From: a virus
Taxonomy: Duplodnaviria > Heunggongvirae > Uroviricota > Caudoviricetes
DNA length: 64,000 nt
Direction: 5' to 3' (one strand)
IMG/VR virus record: IMGVR_UViG_2908567220_000002
Span: 33,901 to 97,900 of that record
In this document: positions 2,275-59,468 of the stretch, piece by piece
Position numbering within the stretch: the first letter of the stretch is position 1
Layout: every line of letters starts with the position of its first letter
Position numbers and translations under genes: made by a program
The notes under the pieces: generated by a model
What the model was told of the DNA's origin: nothing
The model's database searches: none
What the model saw: only the letters and a program-made list of their open reading frames with translations

Positions 2275-2302
2275 GAAAAAACAAAACCCGCCGAAGCGGG
2301 TT
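2275..2302 (-). terminator. Intrinsic terminator downstream of hok
   Basis: Stem AACCCGC / GCGGGTT with CGAA loop, followed on the minus strand by a T-run. Confidence 0.55.
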
Positions 2303-2370
2303 AAGTGCGGGTGCGTTGAGGATGCCTGACTCATCAGAGGTGGCGAGGGATTTCTCCCTCGCCTGGTCTC

Positions 2371-2526
2371 TTACTCCTCAGGTTCGTAAGCTGTGAAGAC
2401 AGCGACCTCCGTCTGGCCGGTTCGGATTCGTACCTCGCAGAGGTCTTTCCTCGTTACCAGTGCCGTCATTATGACGGTTAAACAGATGACGATCAGGGCG
2501 ATTAACATCGCCTTTTGCTGCTTCAT
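2371..2526 (-). CDS. hok: Hok/Gef family type I toxin
   Basis: 51 aa MKQQKAMLIALIVICLTVIMTALVTRKDLCEVRIRTGQTEVAVFTAYEPEE; tracked ORF is extended in-frame upstream. Confidence 0.9.
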   Translation of the reverse strand: MKQQKAMLIALIVICLTVIMTALVTRKDLCEVRIRTGQTEVAVFTAYEPEE

Positions 2527-2936
2527 AGCCTGCTTCTCCTTGCCTTTCGGCACGTAAGAGGCTAACCTAGATTTGCCGTTCATAGATTGAGCCTCAGATT
2601 AATGTATAAGCGTCTTGCAGGACGCATAATGTTAACTGGGGCTTTTCTCTATCTGCCTTTGGTGTTCATGCTTGAGGCAGATAGCCTCAAGCACCCGCAG
2701 CAATTTTACTTAACTCCCCTTTTCCCACAAATCGTTTTTATCCCTACTGGTAATGTTCTCCCGATGTGGGATTCCCACATTGGAACGAATTCAATCAGTT
2801 AAAGACTCATCAGAATCTCACCTTTCTAAGTGCCCACAGGTGAGGCATTGCAATAAAAATAGCAAACGTGTATAAAAGGAGGTAATGCATGTTTTTCCAG
2901 TCTTATCAATCCATTACTGAGAGTTAAGGGGGCGCC

Positions 2937-3731
2937 GTGGATCGGTGCGGTAATTATTTACTTAAAGATGGTCGCAGTTTAGGACAAGGGAGTTTTGGCG
3001 AAGTATTTAAGGTTGATGTCTATAACTTAACCCAGACCCACATGACCACATATGCTCGCAAATACTTTTCACCTTGCCCGGACTTTGACAAGACCGCTAT
3101 AAAAGAGTTGACTGATTTAAGACAGCGTTTTTTAGTTGAGATCAAAACACAATGCACTCTCAATAGAATAAACTATGATTCAATAGCGCCAATAGTTTTA
3201 TTTAATACAAATGGTGATAAACCTTATTTTGTTATGGAATTGGCAGAGTGTAACTTATATGAAGCCATCCGCAATGGTATGAATTACGCGGAGAGGAAGT
3301 CTGCTGTTACTCAGATTTTAAAAGGAATTATCACCATACATGAAAACAACTATATACATCGTGATTTAAAACCAGGAAACATACTTTATTATGCCGATGG
3401 AAAGTATAAAATATCTGATTTTGGTCTAGTAAAAGACAGAGATACCTTACGGGCCGAAATCAAAACAAAATTTAAGCCTAATCACATGGGCACAGATGGA
3501 TATCGAGCGCCCGAAATACATGATAGCGGTCTTTTTTCTTTTCAAAGCGACATATTTGCAGCAGGTAAAATTATCACTGATATATATCCCACAGAAAGAA
3601 GTGAAAAATTAAAAAGATTGATTGCAAAATGTTGCGCACATTGGCCTGAAGAACGATATCAAAGCACACGGGAGTTACTGGAAGATTTTTTAAAAGTGAC
3701 GGGGGAGGTAAATCATGAAGAACATAATTGA
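2937..3731 (+). CDS. Hanks-type Ser/Thr protein kinase
   Basis: 264 aa; G-loop GQGSFGEV, catalytic loop HRDLKPGN, DFG, GTDGYRAPE; AT-rich; candidate promoter TTGCAA-17-TATAAA upstream. Confidence 0.9.
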   Translation: MDRCGNYLLKDGRSLGQGSFGEVFKVDVYNLTQTHMTTYARKYFSPCPDFDKTAIKELTDLRQRFLVEIKTQCTLNRINYDSIAPIVLFNTNGDKPYFVMELAECNLYEAIRNGMNYAERKSAVTQILKGIITIHENNYIHRDLKPGNILYYADGKYKISDFGLVKDRDTLRAEIKTKFKPNHMGTDGYRAPEIHDSGLFSFQSDIFAAGKIITDIYPTERSEKLKRLIAKCCAHWPEERYQSTRELLEDFLKVTGEVNHEEHN

Positions 3732-4431
3732 AATGGCATGTTTTAGCCTAAAACAACCCCAAAAAAAAGAAAATGAAGACTTTTATTTACCGCCATCTTT
3801 TGATAGCGATTTTAACATTGTCTTTGCAGTAGCTGATGGGGTTGGTTCCTCTGAACATTCAATGCTTGCATCTCATGCAGCCATTCGTGGCATTAGACAC
3901 ACGCTAGGCACTTCCTTTTTCTCAATTGAAAGTGCATTTCATTCAGCTAAAAAAGAAATTGACAATTTAGATATTAGCACTGCCACAACCTTAACAATTG
4001 TTCAGATCAAAAAAAATGAAGTGTTAATTGGTCATTCCGGTGATTGCCGAGTATACTTCAATAAAAACAACAAACTAAATCAGTTAACCACTGATCAAAC
4101 GAGATATCAAGAACTCCTTGATTCTGGTGAACATAAATTACGTAATTTAAGAAATCATAAAGAACGGCTATCTTCAGTCCTAACGAATGCTTTATCAAAT
4201 ACAACGGATTTGAATTTTGAGTTAATGTCTTTTCCGATTAGCCAGCTAATTTATAATGGCTATCTTCAACTCTATGCAATGACTGATGGTGCCTATAAGC
4301 ATTGGGATGTCAGACCAAGGTTTTCTGAGAAGACAATGCTCTCACCAACAGCTTTTGCGAGTAGTTTAAGAAAAAGGATTGAGAAAAACATAATGGATGA
4401 TTACACTTTTATAGGCGTAAAAGTAACCTAA
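3715..4431 (+). CDS. PP2C (PPM) family Ser/Thr phosphatase
   Basis: 238 aa; NEDFY, VADGVGS, GHSGDCRVY, MTDGAY motifs; overlaps kinase gene by 17 nt. Confidence 0.85.
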   Translation: MKNIIEMACFSLKQPQKKENEDFYLPPSFDSDFNIVFAVADGVGSSEHSMLASHAAIRGIRHTLGTSFFSIESAFHSAKKEIDNLDISTATTLTIVQIKKNEVLIGHSGDCRVYFNKNNKLNQLTTDQTRYQELLDSGEHKLRNLRNHKERLSSVLTNALSNTTDLNFELMSFPISQLIYNGYLQLYAMTDGAYKHWDVRPRFSEKTMLSPTAFASSLRKRIEKNIMDDYTFIGVKVT

Positions 4432-4584
4432 TTTTAGATATCCAAGATATTTACTCTAATTTAACCATAGTATTCCCAACCTCTTTTTATTGGGGGTTGG
4501 GTTCATTAAAGTCACCATTTTCTATTTCTTTCCCGTTAGAGGATATATTATTTCCAGATAAAGAAAGCAACTTCTTATGCAACT

Positions 4585-4689
4585 TCATATCACGCCATGC
4601 TTCCACCGCGGTAACTCTACATAGTCCATTAACAGTTCATGCCATTCTTCAAAACTGGCGTTATATTTAGTTGAAGCAAAATCAGCCAT
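4585..4689 (-). CDS. Small protein (34 aa), hypothetical, translationally coupled to the upstream acidic ORF
   Basis: MADFASTKYNASFEEWHELLMDYVELPRWKHGVI; SD-like GAGGAAGA in the end of the preceding ORF. Confidence 0.25.
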   Translation of the reverse strand: MADFASTKYNASFEEWHELLMDYVELPRWKHGVI

Positions 4690-4690
4690 T

Positions 4691-4864
4691 TTATTCTTCC
4701 TCTTCGTCTTTTATTTCGTGATATGAGTAATTGCAGTAGTTAAAGAAAATATCTTTTGCTTCGTCATGTATTTCATCAGGCGTCGCATCATCATCCACTT
4801 CGAATTCATCCTCGAAATCTCCACCGGCTATTCCCGTTTCAATAATTATTTTGAACTTTCGCAT
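4691..4864 (-). CDS. Small acidic protein (57 aa), hypothetical
   Basis: Hand-translated: MRKFKIIIETGIAGGDFEDEFEVDDDATPDEIHDEAKDIFFNYCNYSYHEIKDEEEE; AT-rich; below ORF-track size cutoff. Confidence 0.3.
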   Translation of the reverse strand: MRKFKIIIETGIAGGDFEDEFEVDDDATPDEIHDEAKDIFFNYCNYSYHEIKDEEEE

Positions 4865-10930: not shown

Positions 10931-11456
10931 AAACACTCCTTTTTACTGTGGAAAGCTAAATCATATCACGGTCTATGAAGTAAAAAGTGAATTTCGTGAT
11001 GCGGTGAATGCGGCTCAGCGCACGCAGAACAGTTAAAAACACAAGTGTTATGGGTGAATCATCCGGCGTTAATTGCTAACTGGTTAACGTCACCTGGAGG
11101 CACCAGGCACCGCATCACAAAGTTCACTTAGGTGATGAAAGGTAGAGAAAATGTTGAATGTAGCTATTGAAAACCAGAACGGGTGGAATTATAGTGCACC
11201 TGCACCTCATAAAACGGGTGCCGGGCGTGGAAACCCGATGTTCACTAACGCGCATAACCGCGCTCAGGCGGTTTTTTTATGCGTAATGCACAGCCACATT
11301 CAGATTATGGTGGGACGTGCAGGGCAGCCGCAAGGCTGGCCGGGTTCGTTAGTGACCGGTATTTCCACCCCTGTACGTCTCACCACCCTTATGGTCGTGG
11401 AAAACCTTGGTGGTGAGTTAATCAAATTCACTAACGAGGCTGCTATCATGGCTACT

Positions 11457-33738: not shown

Positions 33739-34092
33739 TCAGCGGCGACGGTTAACGGCAGGCGGTACGCCCCGTCCAAGCCAGAGATGACAACTTCCGC
33801 CATCATCCGGCGAAACCCGATCTACCCAGAAATTTTCCTCACCGATGGTCAGCGTGTCTCCACGCCGCAGCTGCCGCACCTCATCAGTCCGGACAAACAG
33901 GGACGGGCTGGAGCCTTCAACGCGCACGCCCTGTCCGGCATAGCTGATATTTTCAGGGTCATCAAAAACACCACGTATCACAGCACCGGACTGCTCACCG
34001 GATGTCATGGTGGCTGACGTTCCCATGTACCCGCGTATCGTTTCATCAGCGCGAGCAATGGCAGCATCGAACAGGTTATCGAAATCAGCCAC
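33739..34092 (-). CDS. FII: Head-tail joining protein FII
   Basis: 117 aa; lambda gpFII-like. Confidence 0.9.
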   Translation of the reverse strand: MADFDNLFDAAIARADETIRGYMGTSATMTSGEQSGAVIRGVFDDPENISYAGQGVRVEGSSPSLFVRTDEVRQLRRGDTLTIGEENFWVDRVSPDDGGSCHLWLGRGVPPAVNRRR

Positions 34093-48089: not shown

Positions 48090-48460
48090 TTTTTGACCTG
48101 CTCTTCATGCATTATGGGGTAAATCTTCACCCCCAGACGTCCACCAGATACTGGCTGACCACGAACGATATTGATTTCATCAAACTGCTCATCGTCCATT
48201 AACACTCCCGCATGCGTCAGCGCATCCAGCGGTGCTTTCAGGATATTGTCCAGGTCGCGACGACGCTTATCCGGTGGCTCTGCAATCACCTTTATCGCCA
48301 GCCTTCCGGACAGGCTTAATTTCAGCCGCTGCTGGCGAACAATAAGCGCCACTGCCCGGCGATAACGCTCCCCGGCTTTTGATACAAAATATGTGCTGCC
48401 ACGGCGTCGCCAGTAAGTGTTCACCGTCGGCGGGTAAGGTAAAACCAAATCTATGAGCAT
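48086..48460 (-). CDS. rusA: Holliday junction resolvase RusA
   Basis: 124 aa; paralog of 517..867. Confidence 0.9.
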   Translation of the reverse strand: MLIDLVLPYPPTVNTYWRRRGSTYFVSKAGERYRRAVALIVRQQRLKLSLSGRLAIKVIAEPPDKRRRDLDNILKAPLDALTHAGVLMDDEQFDEINIVRGQPVSGGRLGVKIYPIMHEEQVKK

Positions 48461-48472
48461 CAGTCACCTCTT

Positions 48473-49519
48473 TTACCCAAGCACGCCAGTTGCAAAGGCG
48501 TGATCAAGAAAACGAAAAATTAAATCAACCTGAGAACCATGCTTTTCTTCGAACGCCAGAGGATCCGCATGAAGCTCGTTGTGATGCTCCCGACACAGCG
48601 GTAGCGTGAAAATATCGTGAGATTTTGTCCCCATTCCGCCCTGACCATGACCAATCAGGTGATGGGGATCGTCGGCTGGCTTACCACAACACGCACACGG
48701 CTGTGTCTTCACCCAGCGTGTGTATTTCTCGTTAACCCAGCGGCGACGTTTAGGTCGTTTCATGAAAGATTCCGGAGACTCAGGATCAACGGCAATGCTG
48801 ACCACCGTCTCTTCCTGTGGCGGGTTTTGCTGGTGGGCGTGAGGCAGCGGCGCAAGATTTTTTGTGCGCTGCTTCAGTATGCTGGTGGCGGTCTGCTCTC
48901 CCGGTACGATGTCGCTTTCACGGTACATTGAGCGGATTTTTTCCGCACGCAACCCCAGCGAACGACGTAATACCGCTTCCGGTAGCGCGTCCGCCACCTG
49001 ATTGCGGACCGCCCACCAGGATAATTCAGCCAGAGATAATTCACGCTCCTGCGTACCGCTTATTGCGTGACCGATGACGTCAATCATCCATGCTGACAGG
49101 TTTTGATGAGCAAGTTGCTCGAGTGATTCGGATGTCTGGTCACGCAGCTGGTTGTCGCAGTGCCAGCACAACACCATTGCGCCGGTACCATAACGGTGAA
49201 TAACGGTTTCGCTGTGATGATAATCGCCGTGTGGCCACTGGCAGGATTTAATATTGCGCAACAGCCAGTCAGACAATGCACCAGCACCACCAGCAGCACG
49301 AATTACCCGTGCGTTACTGAAAAACGGCAGCAATGTTTTGTCTTCCACCAGCGGCTGGCGAACGGCAGGAACGACCCCGGACGGCAGATTACGCATGCTT
49401 TTCGGTTCCGGCTCCACCAGTACCCGGGTATTGTGGAATACCGGCATGGATTCACGGCCCGGCTTAACGATCACCAGCCCGAGTTCCGGTACCAGAACAG
49501 GTCGAAGTAATACCCGCAC
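48473..49519 (-). CDS. DUF968-family protein (YdfU-like) with HNH-like motif
   Basis: 348 aa; paralog of 880..1929. Confidence 0.8.
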   Translation of the reverse strand: MRVLLRPVLVPELGLVIVKPGRESMPVFHNTRVLVEPEPKSMRNLPSGVVPAVRQPLVEDKTLLPFFSNARVIRAAGGAGALSDWLLRNIKSCQWPHGDYHHSETVIHRYGTGAMVLCWHCDNQLRDQTSESLEQLAHQNLSAWMIDVIGHAISGTQERELSLAELSWWAVRNQVADALPEAVLRRSLGLRAEKIRSMYRESDIVPGEQTATSILKQRTKNLAPLPHAHQQNPPQEETVVSIAVDPESPESFMKRPKRRRWVNEKYTRWVKTQPCACCGKPADDPHHLIGHGQGGMGTKSHDIFTLPLCREHHNELHADPLAFEEKHGSQVDLIFRFLDHAFATGVLG

Positions 49520-49520
49520 G

Positions 49521-49799
49521 TTACCTCCAGATGCGTTGCTGGAATGTGCGGGACGGACGCGGTGGGCGTTCGGAGTAAGGAAGCCTGACGGAGATTATCC
49601 AGTGACGATAATCGAGGCTGAGGGCTTTCTTAATCTCGTATCCGTGTCTGCGGTAGCACTGAATTAGCCACTCGGCCTGTTCTTCAGTGCATGGGGGATG
49701 CTGGAACCAGTCAGATTTGAAAGTGCGGGAACGCCGCCCGTGCCTGCTGGCAAAGACGGCAGAATCATCAGAATTGTGTAATTTGGTATCGTGCGCCAT
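49521..49799 (-). CDS. Hypothetical protein (rem position)
   Basis: 92 aa; paralog of 1931..2203. Confidence 0.55.
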   Translation of the reverse strand: MAHDTKLHNSDDSAVFASRHGRRSRTFKSDWFQHPPCTEEQAEWLIQCYRRHGYEIKKALSLDYRHWIISVRLPYSERPPRPSRTFQQRIWR

Positions 49800-49858
49800 C
49801 GGTTGTCTCTGCTGGCGCAGCAGGTGCCAGTTGTTCAGGCTGGCTCACGTATTATAAC

Positions 49859-50032
49859 TTATTCCCGAACTACCTTGAAACCGAGTCTTTCCAAGTATTC
49901 AATGAATGCCTCAACAGATAACACTACATGATCATCAGGAATTAACGCTGTGTAGGTAATACCCCCATTCTCAACGCGCACAGCATAGAGGCCATCTTCA
50001 CTAAAAATTTCACGTAATTCTTCGATTTTCAT
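49859..50032 (-). CDS. Small hypothetical protein (57 aa), part of inserted cassette
   Basis: Start MKIEELREIF with GGAAGGA SD; tracked ORF 49859..50080. Confidence 0.4.
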   Translation of the reverse strand: MKIEELREIFSEDGLYAVRVENGGITYTALIPDDHVVLSVEAFIEYLERLGFKVVRE

Positions 50033-50156
50033 CAACAGAATCCTTCCAGATAAATAGCACTCCCCCTGTTCGGGGTCCATCCCTCTTCTCCCTGCGCGCT
50101 ACTTAAGTATTTTTGATTCTATTCTGGCACCGTCCAAAACTTCAAACACGTTGAAA

Positions 50157-50184
50157 ATAAAAACAAAAAACCCGCCGAAGCGGG
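50157..50184 (-). terminator. Intrinsic terminator after the XRE-M78 gene (duplicate of the hok terminator sequence)
   Basis: CCCGC-CGAA-GCGGG hairpin then T-run on minus strand; same hairpin as at 52001-52021. Confidence 0.6.
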
Positions 50185-50189
50185 TATAC

Positions 50190-51296
50190 TCAAACAATCT
50201 GGAAAATATTTCTTGGATTTGTAATAGGTCTGTTGATGGAGAACAACTCACGAATTAAATCTTGGCTCAAGCCAGTTTTCATAAGAATTCTTAGCCAGGT
50301 TGCATCATCCAGCATTTCAATCGCCTCGGCCAGCATGCCGGGTTCTTCAGGGCGCAAAAGTTCATCACCAGGTTCAACTCTCGTATACCCTCTGGAATTA
50401 AGATGCATATAGCCAGTTCTTGCCTGTTCCTGGGTCAATAAGCCTAATGCGCTGGCTCGATAAATACACATTTTAAGGCTGATTTTCCATCTAAGTTTAA
50501 ATTCAACCAGAGCATTCCAGTCGAATTGCTTACCTCGTATTCGTGGAAATTCTTTAATGAAAGATAACCTGGGAACTAATAAGGCGCTCGAAAAGTGATC
50601 GGCTTGTGATTCCGTAAGTTTATCACCTGTCGTTATGCCCTCATGCATTACTAAATGCCCTAATTCATGACCTAAATCAGAGCGAAATCTACATATGCTT
50701 TTTTTAACATTGTTCCTGATGATAACAGGCCTGTTATTGTGAACAGTAAAAGCATCAACACGATCATCGACTCCCGTAACATGCGCAACGATTACCCCTA
50801 AACTCTCCGCCAATTTAACCATTGATGATATAGGGCCAAGACCTAAATTCCAGGCACGGCGACAATCTTCTGCCACTCGCTCAATATCATTCGGAGTAAG
50901 TAATTCAGCCCCTGGGTGCTCCGGTATGTTAACGTCAGGAAATTCGATTTCACCTTCAACAGCAGAAATTATAATATTAAGAATCTCAGCCCTGGCCAAT
51001 ACACTATTAGTCAGCGTTTGAGTCCTGGACTTCTTACTCCGAAAATGGCAGACATCACTTTCCAGAGCGTATTTTCGTTCAGTAAAAAGAAAACTGGACT
51101 TAATCATAAGCGCTGAAGATATTAACTCAAGACATTGCTCCGATGGCCTGCACCCCTTCTCCAGTTTGCTAACGAATTGCTTTGTCTTGCCAATTTTTTC
51201 GGCTAACTCTTCACAAGAAAGCCCAACAGCCATTCTCGCTAGTTTGAGCTTATCACCCCGATACTCAGTGAAGTTATTCACCTGATGTTCCATCAC
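50190..51296 (-). CDS. XRE-family HTH fused to ImmA/IrrE-type (M78) zinc metallopeptidase domain
   Basis: 368 aa; N-terminal HTH (KLKLARMAVGLSCEELAEKIGKTKQFVSKLE); HEXXH motif HELGHLVMHE. Confidence 0.8.
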   Translation of the reverse strand: MMEHQVNNFTEYRGDKLKLARMAVGLSCEELAEKIGKTKQFVSKLEKGCRPSEQCLELISSALMIKSSFLFTERKYALESDVCHFRSKKSRTQTLTNSVLARAEILNIIISAVEGEIEFPDVNIPEHPGAELLTPNDIERVAEDCRRAWNLGLGPISSMVKLAESLGVIVAHVTGVDDRVDAFTVHNNRPVIIRNNVKKSICRFRSDLGHELGHLVMHEGITTGDKLTESQADHFSSALLVPRLSFIKEFPRIRGKQFDWNALVEFKLRWKISLKMCIYRASALGLLTQEQARTGYMHLNSRGYTRVEPGDELLRPEEPGMLAEAIEMLDDATWLRILMKTGLSQDLIRELFSINRPITNPRNIFQIV

Positions 51297-51924
51297 TGCT
51301 CACATCCAAATCTTTATCCTTCGTACGCCGACGAAGAGGCACCTTATTAATCTCCGCTTCGTCAGGGAGTGTGTTATAATCAAGAGGCATAAGCGGCATC
51401 GATGCTGTAGATTGATGAGAAACTATACTAATCTGAGCACCATAAGTATTAAATCCAACAAGAGCTACCTCCCAACGAGGCAGTGTGGACTCTAATTCAC
51501 CATCGCCCTCTTCGGATAAAAAAGGCTCAGCTATGACTCGCCATGTAATATCTTGCTCAGCCTCAACATCACCAAACAATGAGAGCTGCTCATACTCTAC
51601 TTTATTTCGACGCAGACGATGTTTCTTTTTGGGGTTATTAATGCAATCTTTGGTAAATTGTAGCGGAACTTTATTTAAAGCAACTACATAGTCCAACCCC
51701 TTGGAAATCATCTCAAGGCCAGGAATTGCATCTTCATTTTGAATAAGATGATTTCTGACCCAATCATAAGCCCTTACACCTTCAGACCAGTTGCTGTCTA
51801 ATGCGTGCTTATGATAGTACAGCTGCTCAAGTACGTTAGCGATCTCCGCCAACAAGTGGCGAACATAGTTTTCAGCAAGATAAGGTTGAAATTCCCAACA
51901 AGGAGCTAACTGATTTTCATTCAT
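51274..51924 (-). CDS. Hypothetical 216-aa protein, upstream partner of the XRE-M78 gene (23-nt overlap)
   Basis: MNENQLAPCWEFQPYLAENYVRHLL...; no recognisable motif; candidate TTGACA promoter upstream at ~51983-51988. Confidence 0.55.
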   Translation of the reverse strand: MNENQLAPCWEFQPYLAENYVRHLLAEIANVLEQLYYHKHALDSNWSEGVRAYDWVRNHLIQNEDAIPGLEMISKGLDYVVALNKVPLQFTKDCINNPKKKHRLRRNKVEYEQLSLFGDVEAEQDITWRVIAEPFLSEEGDGELESTLPRWEVALVGFNTYGAQISIVSHQSTASMPLMPLDYNTLPDEAEINKVPLRRRTKDKDLDVSSDGTSGE

Positions 51925-52000
51925 TTCAAGTTTCGCTTTTTTTAGAATTCGTAAACCACATATTTTCGCATTTTTCTATTTTTGTCAACCAGACTAATGC

Positions 52001-52021
52001 AAAAACCCGCCGAAGCGGGTT
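52001..52021 (-). terminator. Intrinsic terminator downstream of hok (prophage B copy)
   Basis: CCCGC-CGAA-GCGGG hairpin with T-run on minus strand. Confidence 0.55.
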
Positions 52022-52089
52022 AAGTGCGGGTGCGTTGAGGATGCCTGGCACATCAGAGGTGGCGGGAGATTACTCCCCCGCCGGGTCTC

Positions 52090-52245
52090 TTACTCCTCAG
52101 GTTCGTAAGCTGTGAAGACAGCGACCTCCGTCTGCCCGGTTCGGATTCGTACCTCGCAGAGGTCTTTCCTCGTTACCAGTGCCGTCACTATGACGGTTAA
52201 ACAGATGACGATCAGGGCGATTAGCATCGCCTTTTGCTGCTTCAT
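52090..52245 (-). CDS. hok: Hok/Gef family type I toxin
   Basis: 51 aa MKQQKAMLIALIVICLTVIVTALVTRKDLCEVRIRTGQTEVAVFTAYEPEE. Confidence 0.9.
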   Translation of the reverse strand: MKQQKAMLIALIVICLTVIVTALVTRKDLCEVRIRTGQTEVAVFTAYEPEE

Positions 52246-52456
52246 AGCCTGCTTCTCCTTGCCTTTCGGCACGTAAGAGGCTAACCTACGTGTGTAGAGC
52301 ATAGATATGGCCTCAGATTAATGTTAAGCGTCTTGCCGGACGCGTAATGTTAACTGGGGCTTTTCTCTATCTGCCTTTTGGTGTTCATGCCTGAGACAGA
52401 TAGCCTCAAGCACCCGCTGCAATTCTACTTAACTCTCCTTTTCCCGCAAACCGTTT

Positions 52457-52540
52457 TTATCCCCAGCGGCAAATCGAATACACCACCAGCGCCACCGCCA
52501 TCGCAATTCCTACCGTTGTTAATGCTTCAGGCCAGGTCAT
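52457..52540 (-). CDS. 27-aa hydrophobic peptide, translationally coupled (ATGA overlap) to the upstream gene; speculative
   Basis: Hand-translated [27 protein letters not shown]; absent from prophage A, whose cargo island begins exactly here. Confidence 0.25.
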
Positions 52541-52881
52541 CGTAAAATATCCTCCACGCTTATCAGTCCGTTCCGCTCCAGATAACTCATCGCCTTATCC
52601 GGTAATTTGCAGTCTGGCTTCGCTTTCCTCAGTTGCCAGGTTAACTGCTTTACCAGCATGGTTAACTCATCGACCAGACGCTGATATCCCACTGGTTTGT
52701 ATTCATGCAATTTACCGGCTGGCTCTGCTGCCAGCGATACCAGTGCGATTTCCAGAACAGCAATATCCATCTTATATGTGCGGATGATGTCATGGTCGAT
52801 TGTGCCCGGTATGCACAGTCTCTGTGCTTCAATAGTCTCCTCTGCGTGAGCTATTAACTGCTCTCTGGTAAAAGTCGTCAT
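52537..52881 (-). CDS. Hypothetical nin-region protein (114 aa)
   Basis: [22 protein letters not shown]...; paralogous N-terminus to the 55-aa ORF just upstream. Confidence 0.5.
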
Positions 52882-59411: not shown

Positions 59412-59468
59412 TTTTCTGGTGACGTTTGGCGGTATCAGTTTTACTCCGTGACTGCTCTGCCGCCCTTT
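59412..59468 (+). ncRNA. dicF: DicF small RNA
   Basis: TTTCTGGTGACGTTTGGCGGTATCAGTTTTACTCCGTGACTGCTCTGCCGCCCTTTTT matches DicF as recalled, including terminator hairpin and U-tail. Confidence 0.8.

Follow-up and report, generated by a model that had tools for sequence, protein, structure and literature searches.

Likely slots for defence and toxin-antitoxin cassettes at both ends of a hok/mok/sok unit in lambdoid prophages

Two lambdoid prophages, A and B, lie in the same orientation in a 64,000-nt stretch of viral DNA (positions 33,901 to 97,900 of IMG/VR record IMGVR_UViG_2908567220_000002, Caudoviricetes), referred to here as the window. Each prophage carries a hok/mok/sok unit, which consists of the toxin gene hok, the overlapping reading frame mok and the antisense RNA Sok. 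Based on a comparison of these units with their relatives, we think it likely that each prophage has a complete unit whose two ends are variable slots for defence and toxin-antitoxin (TA) cassettes, and that these cassettes spread by means of hok homology. The first-pass annotation of this DNA had proposed that the hok neighbourhood of the nin region is a hotspot for accessory modules. The proposal is supported, at the level of sequence, by the classes of hok flanks, by nearby control junctions that do not vary and by the identities of the cargo.

Sequence variation at the ends of the hok unit

The first-pass annotation held that flanking genes that stay the same across related prophages would speak against a hotspot. 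We compared the flanks of hok in 80 loci from IMG/VR, which are not phylogenetically independent of each other, and 53 loci from species-representative genomes, all of which encode close relatives of Hok. For close hok units, approximately 96 upstream flanks of 500 bp fell into 24 classes and approximately 84 downstream flanks fell into 14 classes, giving 41 combinations, although these counts are descriptive because of the non-independence of the IMG/VR loci. With 24 upstream and 14 downstream classes, the flanks are not invariant.

A second sample was anchored on the gene p92 instead of hok, which removes selection on hok. The order of the backbone downstream of hok is the hok terminator, a slot, an optional rem gene, p92, DUF968, RusA and Q. 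In prophage B, p92 (49521-49799, minus strand) is the first invariant backbone gene downstream of the slot, and the optional element is a rem-like gene of 73 aa (49859-50080, minus strand) that matches "rem" genes beside hok in the Rac and PPompW phages. The rem-like gene is confined to downstream flank classes D2 and D3. hok is upstream of p92 in 64 of the 66 p92-anchored loci, and there is an insert in the slot between hok and p92 in 30 of these 64. The distance from the hok terminator to p92 is 83 nt in 34 loci, 374 nt in 10, 751 nt in 10, 1431 nt in five, 1157 nt in two, and 463, 1945 and 2097 nt in one locus each, the last with an IS insertion. In total, the distance between hok and p92 takes at least nine values, from 83 to approximately 2300 nt. 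In contrast, the gap between p92 and DUF968 is identical in all loci scored (60/60 and 74/74; 134/134), and the gap between DUF968 and RusA is constant in 46/46 and 71/72 loci (117/118). Since these control junctions are nearly invariant, the variability is focused at the ends of the hok unit.

The positions at which homology stops point in the same direction. Upstream breakpoints cluster at module positions 1-4, 26-27, 33-34, 38, 42 and 47, between the -35 box and the first transcribed base, and downstream breakpoints cluster at the end of the terminator. The conserved block is essentially the transcript. Likewise, the block common to prophages A and B is exactly one transcription unit. It starts approximately 45 nt ahead of the mRNA 5' end, and its other limit is the T-run of a rho-independent terminator (unit A, 2275-2745; unit B, 52005-52460; both on the minus strand, promoter to terminator). 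Homology between A and B stops at 2744/2745, which is the start of an AT-rich island. The first-pass annotation had the sequence upstream of the hok leader in A diverging into a kinase island at ~2746, and this was accurate.

Rare p92-anchored loci (L196, L209 and L156) are without hok or without its terminator. In L196, a 360-aa protein of no recognised family (3168-4250) stands at the usual place of hok. L156 and L209 (both ~4270-4790) have in common with L196 a different insert of ~0.5 kb upstream of p92. We also considered a tandem array of two cassettes in locus L201 but rejected it, as the sequence is an IS-type transposase insertion.

Cassettes in the slots and how they might arrive

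Judging by the proteins that they encode, the inserts are probably accessory modules, mostly defence or TA systems. The downstream slot holds RosmerTA (in prophage B and in five fetched loci), a second Rosmer subtype (RmrA match, 5.5e-102), a split XRE and M78 pair, HicAB, PDC-S42, a 130-aa lipoprotein or small ORFs. A YgiW/YdeI-family gene is also found in the slot after hok, both in a kinase-island prophage of E. coli O145:H28 strain RM12581 (L339, 3163-3507) and in 933W, beside hokW (L002, 2609-2953). The upstream slot holds Septu (PtuA and PtuB, 3e-103 and 1e-83), Kiwa (KwaB, 1.5e-159), a PD-Lambda-2_C or "Beta protein", a KAP NTPase, QueH, a solute-binding protein, RelBE or a kinase and PP2C phosphatase pair, and several proteins in this slot are unnamed. 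Unnamed inserts at the hok ends include proteins of 365, 310 and 235 aa and a lipoprotein. Cargo is found in either orientation and has its own promoter-like sequence and terminator.

Both prophages of the window have cargo next to hok. The "XRE-M78 cassette" that the first-pass annotation had reported downstream of hok in B is present at 50190-51924, together with a toxin-like gene, and by its profile matches the pair is a RosmerTA (RmrT/RmrA) defence system. RmrT, a Rosmer toxin-like protein of 216 aa (51274-51924, minus strand), matches PADLOC RmrT (4.6e-25) and PHROG 5786 (8e-85). RmrA, a 368-aa protein with an XRE helix-turn-helix (HTH) and an M78 peptidase domain (50190-51296, minus strand; Pfam HTH_3 and Peptidase_M78), matches PADLOC RmrA over residues 12-351 (6.2e-105). 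The RmrT gene is upstream and the two genes overlap by 23 nt. The GC content of RmrTA is ~42%, compared to ~50-55% around it.

The cargo of prophage A is the kinase island (2746 to ~4600), which is on the plus strand, opposite to hok, and has a GC content of 35% compared to ~50% in its surroundings. It encodes a Hanks-type Ser/Thr kinase (2937-3731, plus strand; Pfam Pkinase, 1.4e-31) and a PP2C phosphatase (3715-4431, plus strand; Pfam PP2C_2, 1.4e-10). In PADLOC, the kinase matches mad6 (1e-37), PD-T4-6 (1e-32) and Stk2 (3e-25), covering only the kinase domain of these longer profiles, and the phosphatase has no match. The match of the kinase to NCBIfam MAD6 is far below the cutoff. By these matches, the kinase is similar to mad6, PD-T4-6 and Stk2 in the kinase domain but does not clearly belong to any of the three. 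A highly acidic ORF of 57 aa (4691-4864, minus strand) on the far side of the island is DUF7167-like according to the RefSeq annotation of its relatives.

The junctions between cargo and hok are kept more faithfully than the surrounding sequence. The RmrTA cassette is found in 237 E. coli genomes, and the junction between hok and RmrT is found in 232 of these. The kinase island is found in 33 genomes, with the junction to the hok leader in all 33. The wider 3.3-kb context is kept in just 149 genomes. Since the junctions are kept and the wider context is kept in 149 genomes only, we conclude that cargo and hok travel together while the distal flanks recombine. One could take such tight linkage as a sign that hok/sok and its neighbours are a single functional composite, in which Hok, for example, would serve the neighbouring defence system as effector or back-up killer, and hok/sok itself can exclude phage T4 according to a passage in PMC11364771 that cites Pecota and Wood (1996). 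However, the neighbours are many, unrelated and self-sufficient (Rosmer, Septu, Kiwa, HicAB and RelBE), and they have their own signals and are found in either orientation. Furthermore, most hok units have no neighbouring cargo, and RmrTA is also found without hok. We consider a functional composite very unlikely, and favor independent cassettes that share a location.

Several cassettes are bracketed by duplicated pieces of the hok unit. In prophage B, RmrTA is bracketed by a perfect 20-nt direct repeat with a spacing of 1835 nt, and the repeat is the hok terminator hairpin, ACCCGCTTCGGCGGGTTTTT. The left copy is the hok_B terminator (52001-52020, minus strand), found by both a terminator scan and a repeat search, and the right copy, found by a direct-repeat search, is identical and is 4 nt after the RmrA stop codon (50166-50185, minus strand). 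The ACCCGCTTCGGCGGGTTTTT motif is found three times in the window compared to zero expected, and the third copy is the hok_A terminator (2283-2302, minus strand). Elsewhere, the other Rosmer subtype has a terminator repeat of 43 nt, the XRE and M78 pair one of 31 nt and the lipoprotein one of 19 nt. The PDC-S42 cargo ends in a copy of the hairpin, and the hok unit's own terminator is absent from that locus.

Other insertions duplicate other parts of the unit. On both sides of the Kiwa cargo of ~2 kb, there are direct copies of a segment made up of the hok -10 box and the 29 nucleotides transcribed first (module positions 33-74; L074, 1767-1840 and 3819-4238; L013, 1793-1841 and 3819-4241). In the relBEF arrangement of K-12, relBE splits the hok leader, and there is a 16-nt duplication of the hok Shine-Dalgarno sequence. 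The "truncated" hokD (relF) of K-12 is the 3' part of a hok unit. In its relatives L038 (473-686 and 3987-4241) and L079 (2689-2891 and 3987-4241), an insertion of 1.1-3.3 kb splits the leader, and the 5' half survives upstream. Altogether, the bracketing repeats are 16-74 nt long and are at three different places in the hok unit.

Four downstream cargo types are each bracketed by a second hairpin copy directly after the T-run, and the motif is otherwise absent from the window. This pattern could come from site-specific insertion that targets the hairpin, similar to integron attC sites, IS200/IS605 elements or group IIC introns. We consider such targeting highly improbable. The four repeats differ in length (19, 20, 31 and 43 nt), and the pieces duplicated at other insertions (16 and 42-74 nt) come from unrelated parts of hok. 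A second hairpin is absent from the 374-nt insert class, and no recombinase, transposase or reverse transcriptase was found in or beside the cargo. In addition, a homologue of RmrTA with 80% identity is present in a hok-less, lambda-like nin region (L216, E. coli KL53, 2300-4480). It has the same promoter-like sequence (ggttgacaaaa...), and its terminator has the stem of the hok terminator with a different loop. Given the variable repeat length, the lack of a recombinase and the similar terminator of the hok-less RmrTA, we also rejected the terminator repeat as a transposon target-site duplication or an integron-like site. With the repeats varying in position as well as in length, these findings favor short-homology or illegitimate joins over a transposase or integrase. 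A DNA-methyltransferase remnant adjoins the KL53 RmrTA.

In the loci compared, the hok unit itself is nearly constant, with the small nin/ea-type ORFs on one side and the p92-DUF968-RusA-Q backbone on the other, and the variable slots are the two points just outside the transcript, before the -10 region and first transcribed base (+1) and after the terminator. The sharp boundaries of the unit may exist because it is addictive and its structure is under constraint all the way from +1 to the terminator, so that only recombinants with an intact unit would survive. Selection would then retain insertions that duplicate hok sequence and remove those that delete it. Cargo would enter through short-homology or illegitimate joins, often leaving a hok duplication of 16-74 nt. 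Once next to hok, it could move between prophages, with a block of 455 bp, shared by most E. coli genomes at 90-99% identity, serving as a homology arm for phage Red/RecT-type recombinases. The hok unit is found at a query coverage of at least 80% in 3927 of 5426 complete E. coli genomes, at up to nine places per genome. Rad52-like recombinases are documented to carry out relaxed homologous recombination between phages and prophages (PMC3945230), and later spread of the cassettes by Red/RecT-type recombination of this kind is plausible.

Several points weigh against this explanation. The nin and ea regions of lambdoid phages are classically mosaic, and the small ORFs upstream of hok (p117, p55, p114 and A_145) also vary in presence and order. 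Thus, the variation could be ordinary mosaicism, with hok merely located in a variable nin region and having no role as an anchor or homology arm. The slots are empty in most hok copies (classes D1 and D2 make up 57 of 84 loci), and the flank counts are descriptive. No flanking direct repeats were found for the kinase island of A, which looks like a replacement of the sequence on the p27 side. Since the KL53 RmrTA already has a similar terminator, the second hairpin copy in prophage B may be native to the cassette. Lastly, a survey of all Hok homologues found hok as a whole to be enriched in prophages but found no enrichment of Hok within 20 kb of DefenseFinder systems (12% compared to 9.4% expected; bioRxiv 10.1101/2025.08.07.668861). 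The survey is compatible with our data because most slots are empty and because it pooled all hok classes.

We consider ordinary mosaicism quite unlikely as the full explanation. It does not account for control junctions that are constant next to a hok-to-p92 junction with many states, for breakpoints that match the transcript ends to within a few nucleotides, or for two cargo types that adjoin hok in 98-100% of their occurrences. The first-pass annotation had called hok an "anchor" for cargo insertions, and this holds in part. Variable cargo is indeed found at the ends of hok, whereas a causal anchoring role is something that we infer, and purifying selection on an addictive unit could by itself give sharp boundaries.

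The hok/mok/sok units of the window and their neighbours

Every element listed in the first-pass annotation was found where that annotation had placed it. The hok coding sequences (hok_A, 2371-2526; hok_B, 52090-52245, 51 aa; both on the minus strand) are identical at 153 of 156 positions (98.1%), the mok frames at 203 of 213 (95.3%) and the leaders at 157 of 172, so the earlier description of copies that are about 95% identical with shared leaders was fair. Over the whole unit, identity is 93.2% by BLAST and 90.5% in a global alignment with gaps. hok_B matches Pfam PF01848 (HOK_GEF; 2.9e-23, 81.6 bits compared to a cutoff of 22), its NCBIfam Hok matches are below the curated cutoffs, and the RefSeq protein identical to its product is named HokD (WP_000813254). 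Rfam matches, all above threshold, mark both prophages (DicF, 59414-59465, in B; C4/isrK, 11202-11390, in A).

An in-frame extension of hok to 70 aa had been noted in the ORF list, and it is the mok frame in both copies and in nearly all relatives (mok_A, 2371-2583; mok_B, 52090-52302; both minus strand and in frame with hok). The mok_B frame matches PHROG 251, "MokW-like host killing" (7.8e-33), and the frame is kept in 22 of 24 allele classes of relatives. Its N-terminus is MLYTR... in B and MNGKS... in A. In one allele family (L023, L045, L026 and relatives; "ATG--CGACACATAGAG"), mok is out of frame and its TGA overlaps the ATG of hok (ATGA). Coupling of hok in this family would be by termination and reinitiation rather than by in-frame fusion. 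As far as can be read from the DNA, both copies in the window are complete, ordinary members of the known hokD/hokW class of type I TA systems.

The RNA elements of the family can be recognized in both units. The leader of the hok mRNA, from the mRNA 5' end to the hok start (B, 52240-52415; A, 2521-2696; both minus strand), is a full-length match to Rfam RF01794, with scores of 117.1 bits (B) and 110.4 bits (A) compared to a gathering score of 59. Although RF01794 carries the name "sok antitoxin", its match is on the hok-sense strand and stops at the start codon of hok. The family therefore models the hok mRNA leader and not the antisense RNA. A putative hok promoter in B, read from the sequence, has a -35 box TTGCGG at 52449-52444 and a -10 box TAGAAT at 52427-52422 (52422-52449, minus strand). 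Relatives conserve the -10 box and vary in the -35 region. In the predicted fold of the 408-nt hok mRNA (52415-52008; z = -6.6), nucleotides 1-11 at the 5' end, the tac element (52404-52415, minus strand), are paired to the 3' sequence CCUCAACGCACCC, the fold-back inhibitor fbi (52028-52040, minus strand). The pairing of tac with fbi is present in the minimum free energy (MFE) fold, and fbi is paired to tac in the centroid fold as well. Covariation is uninformative here because the paired columns hardly vary among relatives.

A search for a sok-like antisense promoter in the hok leader had been suggested as a check. Alignment to sokW of 933W, together with predicted folds, supports a sok gene that has its own promoter there. 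Sok_B (52294-52364, plus strand) is ~71 nt and Sok_A is at ~2575-2646 (plus strand), both placed by alignment to the annotated sokW. In the predicted fold of each, a long hairpin follows a single-stranded 5' tail and is itself followed by a U-run (z of approximately -4.3). The putative sok promoter of B (52259-52287, plus strand), identified by homology, consists of -35 TTGCCT, a 17-nt spacer and -10 TAACCT. Its hexamers and spacing are invariant across A, B and 933W, 6 nt before the annotated sokW start. A simple sigma-70 scan reported neither the hok nor the sok promoter, and both were assigned by homology to 933W and plasmid R1.

By homology to R1 hok/sok and hokW-sokW, for which the following is established, the full-length hok mRNA would be inert through pairing of its 5' tac and 3' fbi elements. 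Translation of Hok would need translation of the overlapping mok frame, and Sok, made from the promoter inside the leader, would use its 5' tail to pair with the start region of mok and so block mok. When the supply of Sok stops, as it might upon loss of the prophage, upon SOS induction or when an infecting phage shuts off host transcription, the stable hok mRNA would be processed and translated, and Hok would permeabilise the inner membrane.

The region in which Sok would contact the mok start has the highest entropy within the transcript. This patch of 22 nt, which comprises mok codons 2-5 and the Sok 5' tail (B, 52288-52309; A, 2569-2590; both strands), differs between A and B. In an otherwise highly conserved leader, 18 discrete alleles of the patch were found across 146 distinct module contexts, nearly always with the mok frame intact. 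For the first 12-16 nt of Sok in A and B, the predicted duplex is approximately -20 to -27 kcal/mol with the cognate copy and -9 to -10 kcal/mol with the other copy. The Sok-tail alleles of co-resident hok copies differ in all seven pairs from three multi-copy genomes (the window, CP178302 and CP182556), which is not significant (chance of ~0.3).

These observations allow a broader speculation, which we regard as possible but unlikely. In it, the ends of hok would be portable, homology-based attachment sites and a pan-genomic docking platform for defence genes in lambdoid prophages, and the Sok-tail patch might be under diversifying selection. A cassette bracketed by hok duplications of 16-74 nt could then loop out and re-insert at thousands of hok copies by means of phage single-strand-annealing recombinases. 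Co-resident prophages such as A and B would also carry hok/sok systems that do not neutralise each other. The discrete Sok-tail alleles give a testable hypothesis on how several hok/sok copies coexist in one cell.

Upstream of hok in B is a conserved small ORF, p27, that encodes a hydrophobic peptide of 27 aa (52457-52540, minus strand). As first described, it is coupled to the preceding gene, with its ATG overlapping the TGA of a 114-aa gene at 52537-52881 (ATGA). By comparative criteria, p27 appears to be a real conserved gene. It is found in 88 phage records, its 16 nucleotide alleles all have 27 codons with 14, 10 and 21 variable sites at the three codon positions, and the ATGA overlap persists even though at least five unrelated sequences can precede it. 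No match to p27 was found in PHROGs or NCBIfam, and PGAP has no annotation at its locus. p27 adjoins hokW in 933W and is also upstream of xis in VT1-Sakai with no hok nearby. Because p27 is coupled to unrelated genes and is present without hok, it is best seen as the last gene of a small-ORF operon and not as part of the toxin unit. For these reasons, and because it matches no family, we rejected p27 both as a component of the hok unit and as a type I toxin, and there is no sign that it is toxic.

The two prophages also have longer sequences in common. The hok unit (93%) and a 1.7-kb stretch of p90, DUF968 and RusA (92.8%) are found in both (525-2744 and 48123-52462), approximately 48-50 kb apart. 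These direct repeats could mediate deletion or exchange between prophages A and B.

Relation to known systems

The hok/sok units, RosmerTA, the defence hotspots of P2 and P4 and the morons of lambdoid phages are all known, and what is apparently new is a prophage defence hotspot at the ends of hok. We found no description of such a hotspot in lambdoid prophages, although many subscription papers were outside the search and this absence is no proof. If the slots are as we think, the sites before the hok promoter and after the hok terminator in Qin/Rac-type prophages of E. coli are predictable places for small defence and TA systems. They could provide a cheap way to find new systems by location, as the P2 and P4 hotspots have been. 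A hotspot of this kind would also qualify the recent statement that hok and defence systems are not associated.

Among the known systems closest to the window units is hokW-mokW-sokW of 933W and Sakai Sp5, which has ~93% nucleotide identity over the unit and the same hok, mok, sok promoter and Sok hairpin. hokW-sokW is an experimentally demonstrated type I TA system that depends on RNase III and Hfq and aids the release of Sp5 after mitomycin C, and Hok toxicity, its neutralisation by Sok and post-segregational killing have been shown for it (PMC8621323). Maintenance of the prophage, abortive infection and help with lysis are possible roles of the unit (PMC8621323). The 933W unit differs in being near attR in the early-left region and in having another terminator (the match ends at module position 443), whereas the window units are in the nin region. 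hokD (relF) of the K-12 Qin prophage has only the 3' 255 nt of the unit. The Sok 5' tail and mok codons 2-5 differ among the window copies, 933W and K-12 hokD. hok/sok of plasmid R1 is similar in its tac/fbi fold-back, mok-coupled translation, sok promoter inside the leader and Sok of ~65-70 nt with a single-stranded 5' tail. It differs in that the carrier here is a prophage, the sequence has diverged and Hok is 51 aa.

Individually, the cassettes are ordinary. As in other RosmerTA systems, a toxin-like gene overlaps a gene with XRE-HTH and M78 domains in a two-gene operon, and nothing distinguishes the system except its position directly after the hok terminator in 232 of the 237 E. coli genomes. 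Unlike integron-like cassettes, the inserts have neither a dedicated recombinase nor recombination sites of fixed length.

The hok/sok unit and each of its neighbouring cassettes also resemble the morons of lambdoid phages (PMC3594210), in that each would be an autonomous unit of promoter, one or more genes and terminator between backbone genes, often with a deviant GC content, with the promoters predicted from sequence. In contrast to other morons, several are stacked at one place here, and hok/sok is nearly fixed in the lineage. The hok-derived duplications provide a concrete, testable hypothesis on how morons are acquired.

Finally, the slots resemble the hotspots for defence genes in P2-like prophages and P4-like satellites (Rousset et al. 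2022, PMC9122126; Vassallo et al. 2022, PMC9519451). In both cases, conserved genes flank a short variable locus, each element has one or two anti-phage systems, and many of these are TA-like. Here, however, the carrier is a lambdoid prophage of the Qin/Rac type, and the landmark is a TA transcription unit and not a structural or cos-proximal gene. Furthermore, both ends of the unit have a slot, and cargo is bracketed by short duplications of the landmark itself.

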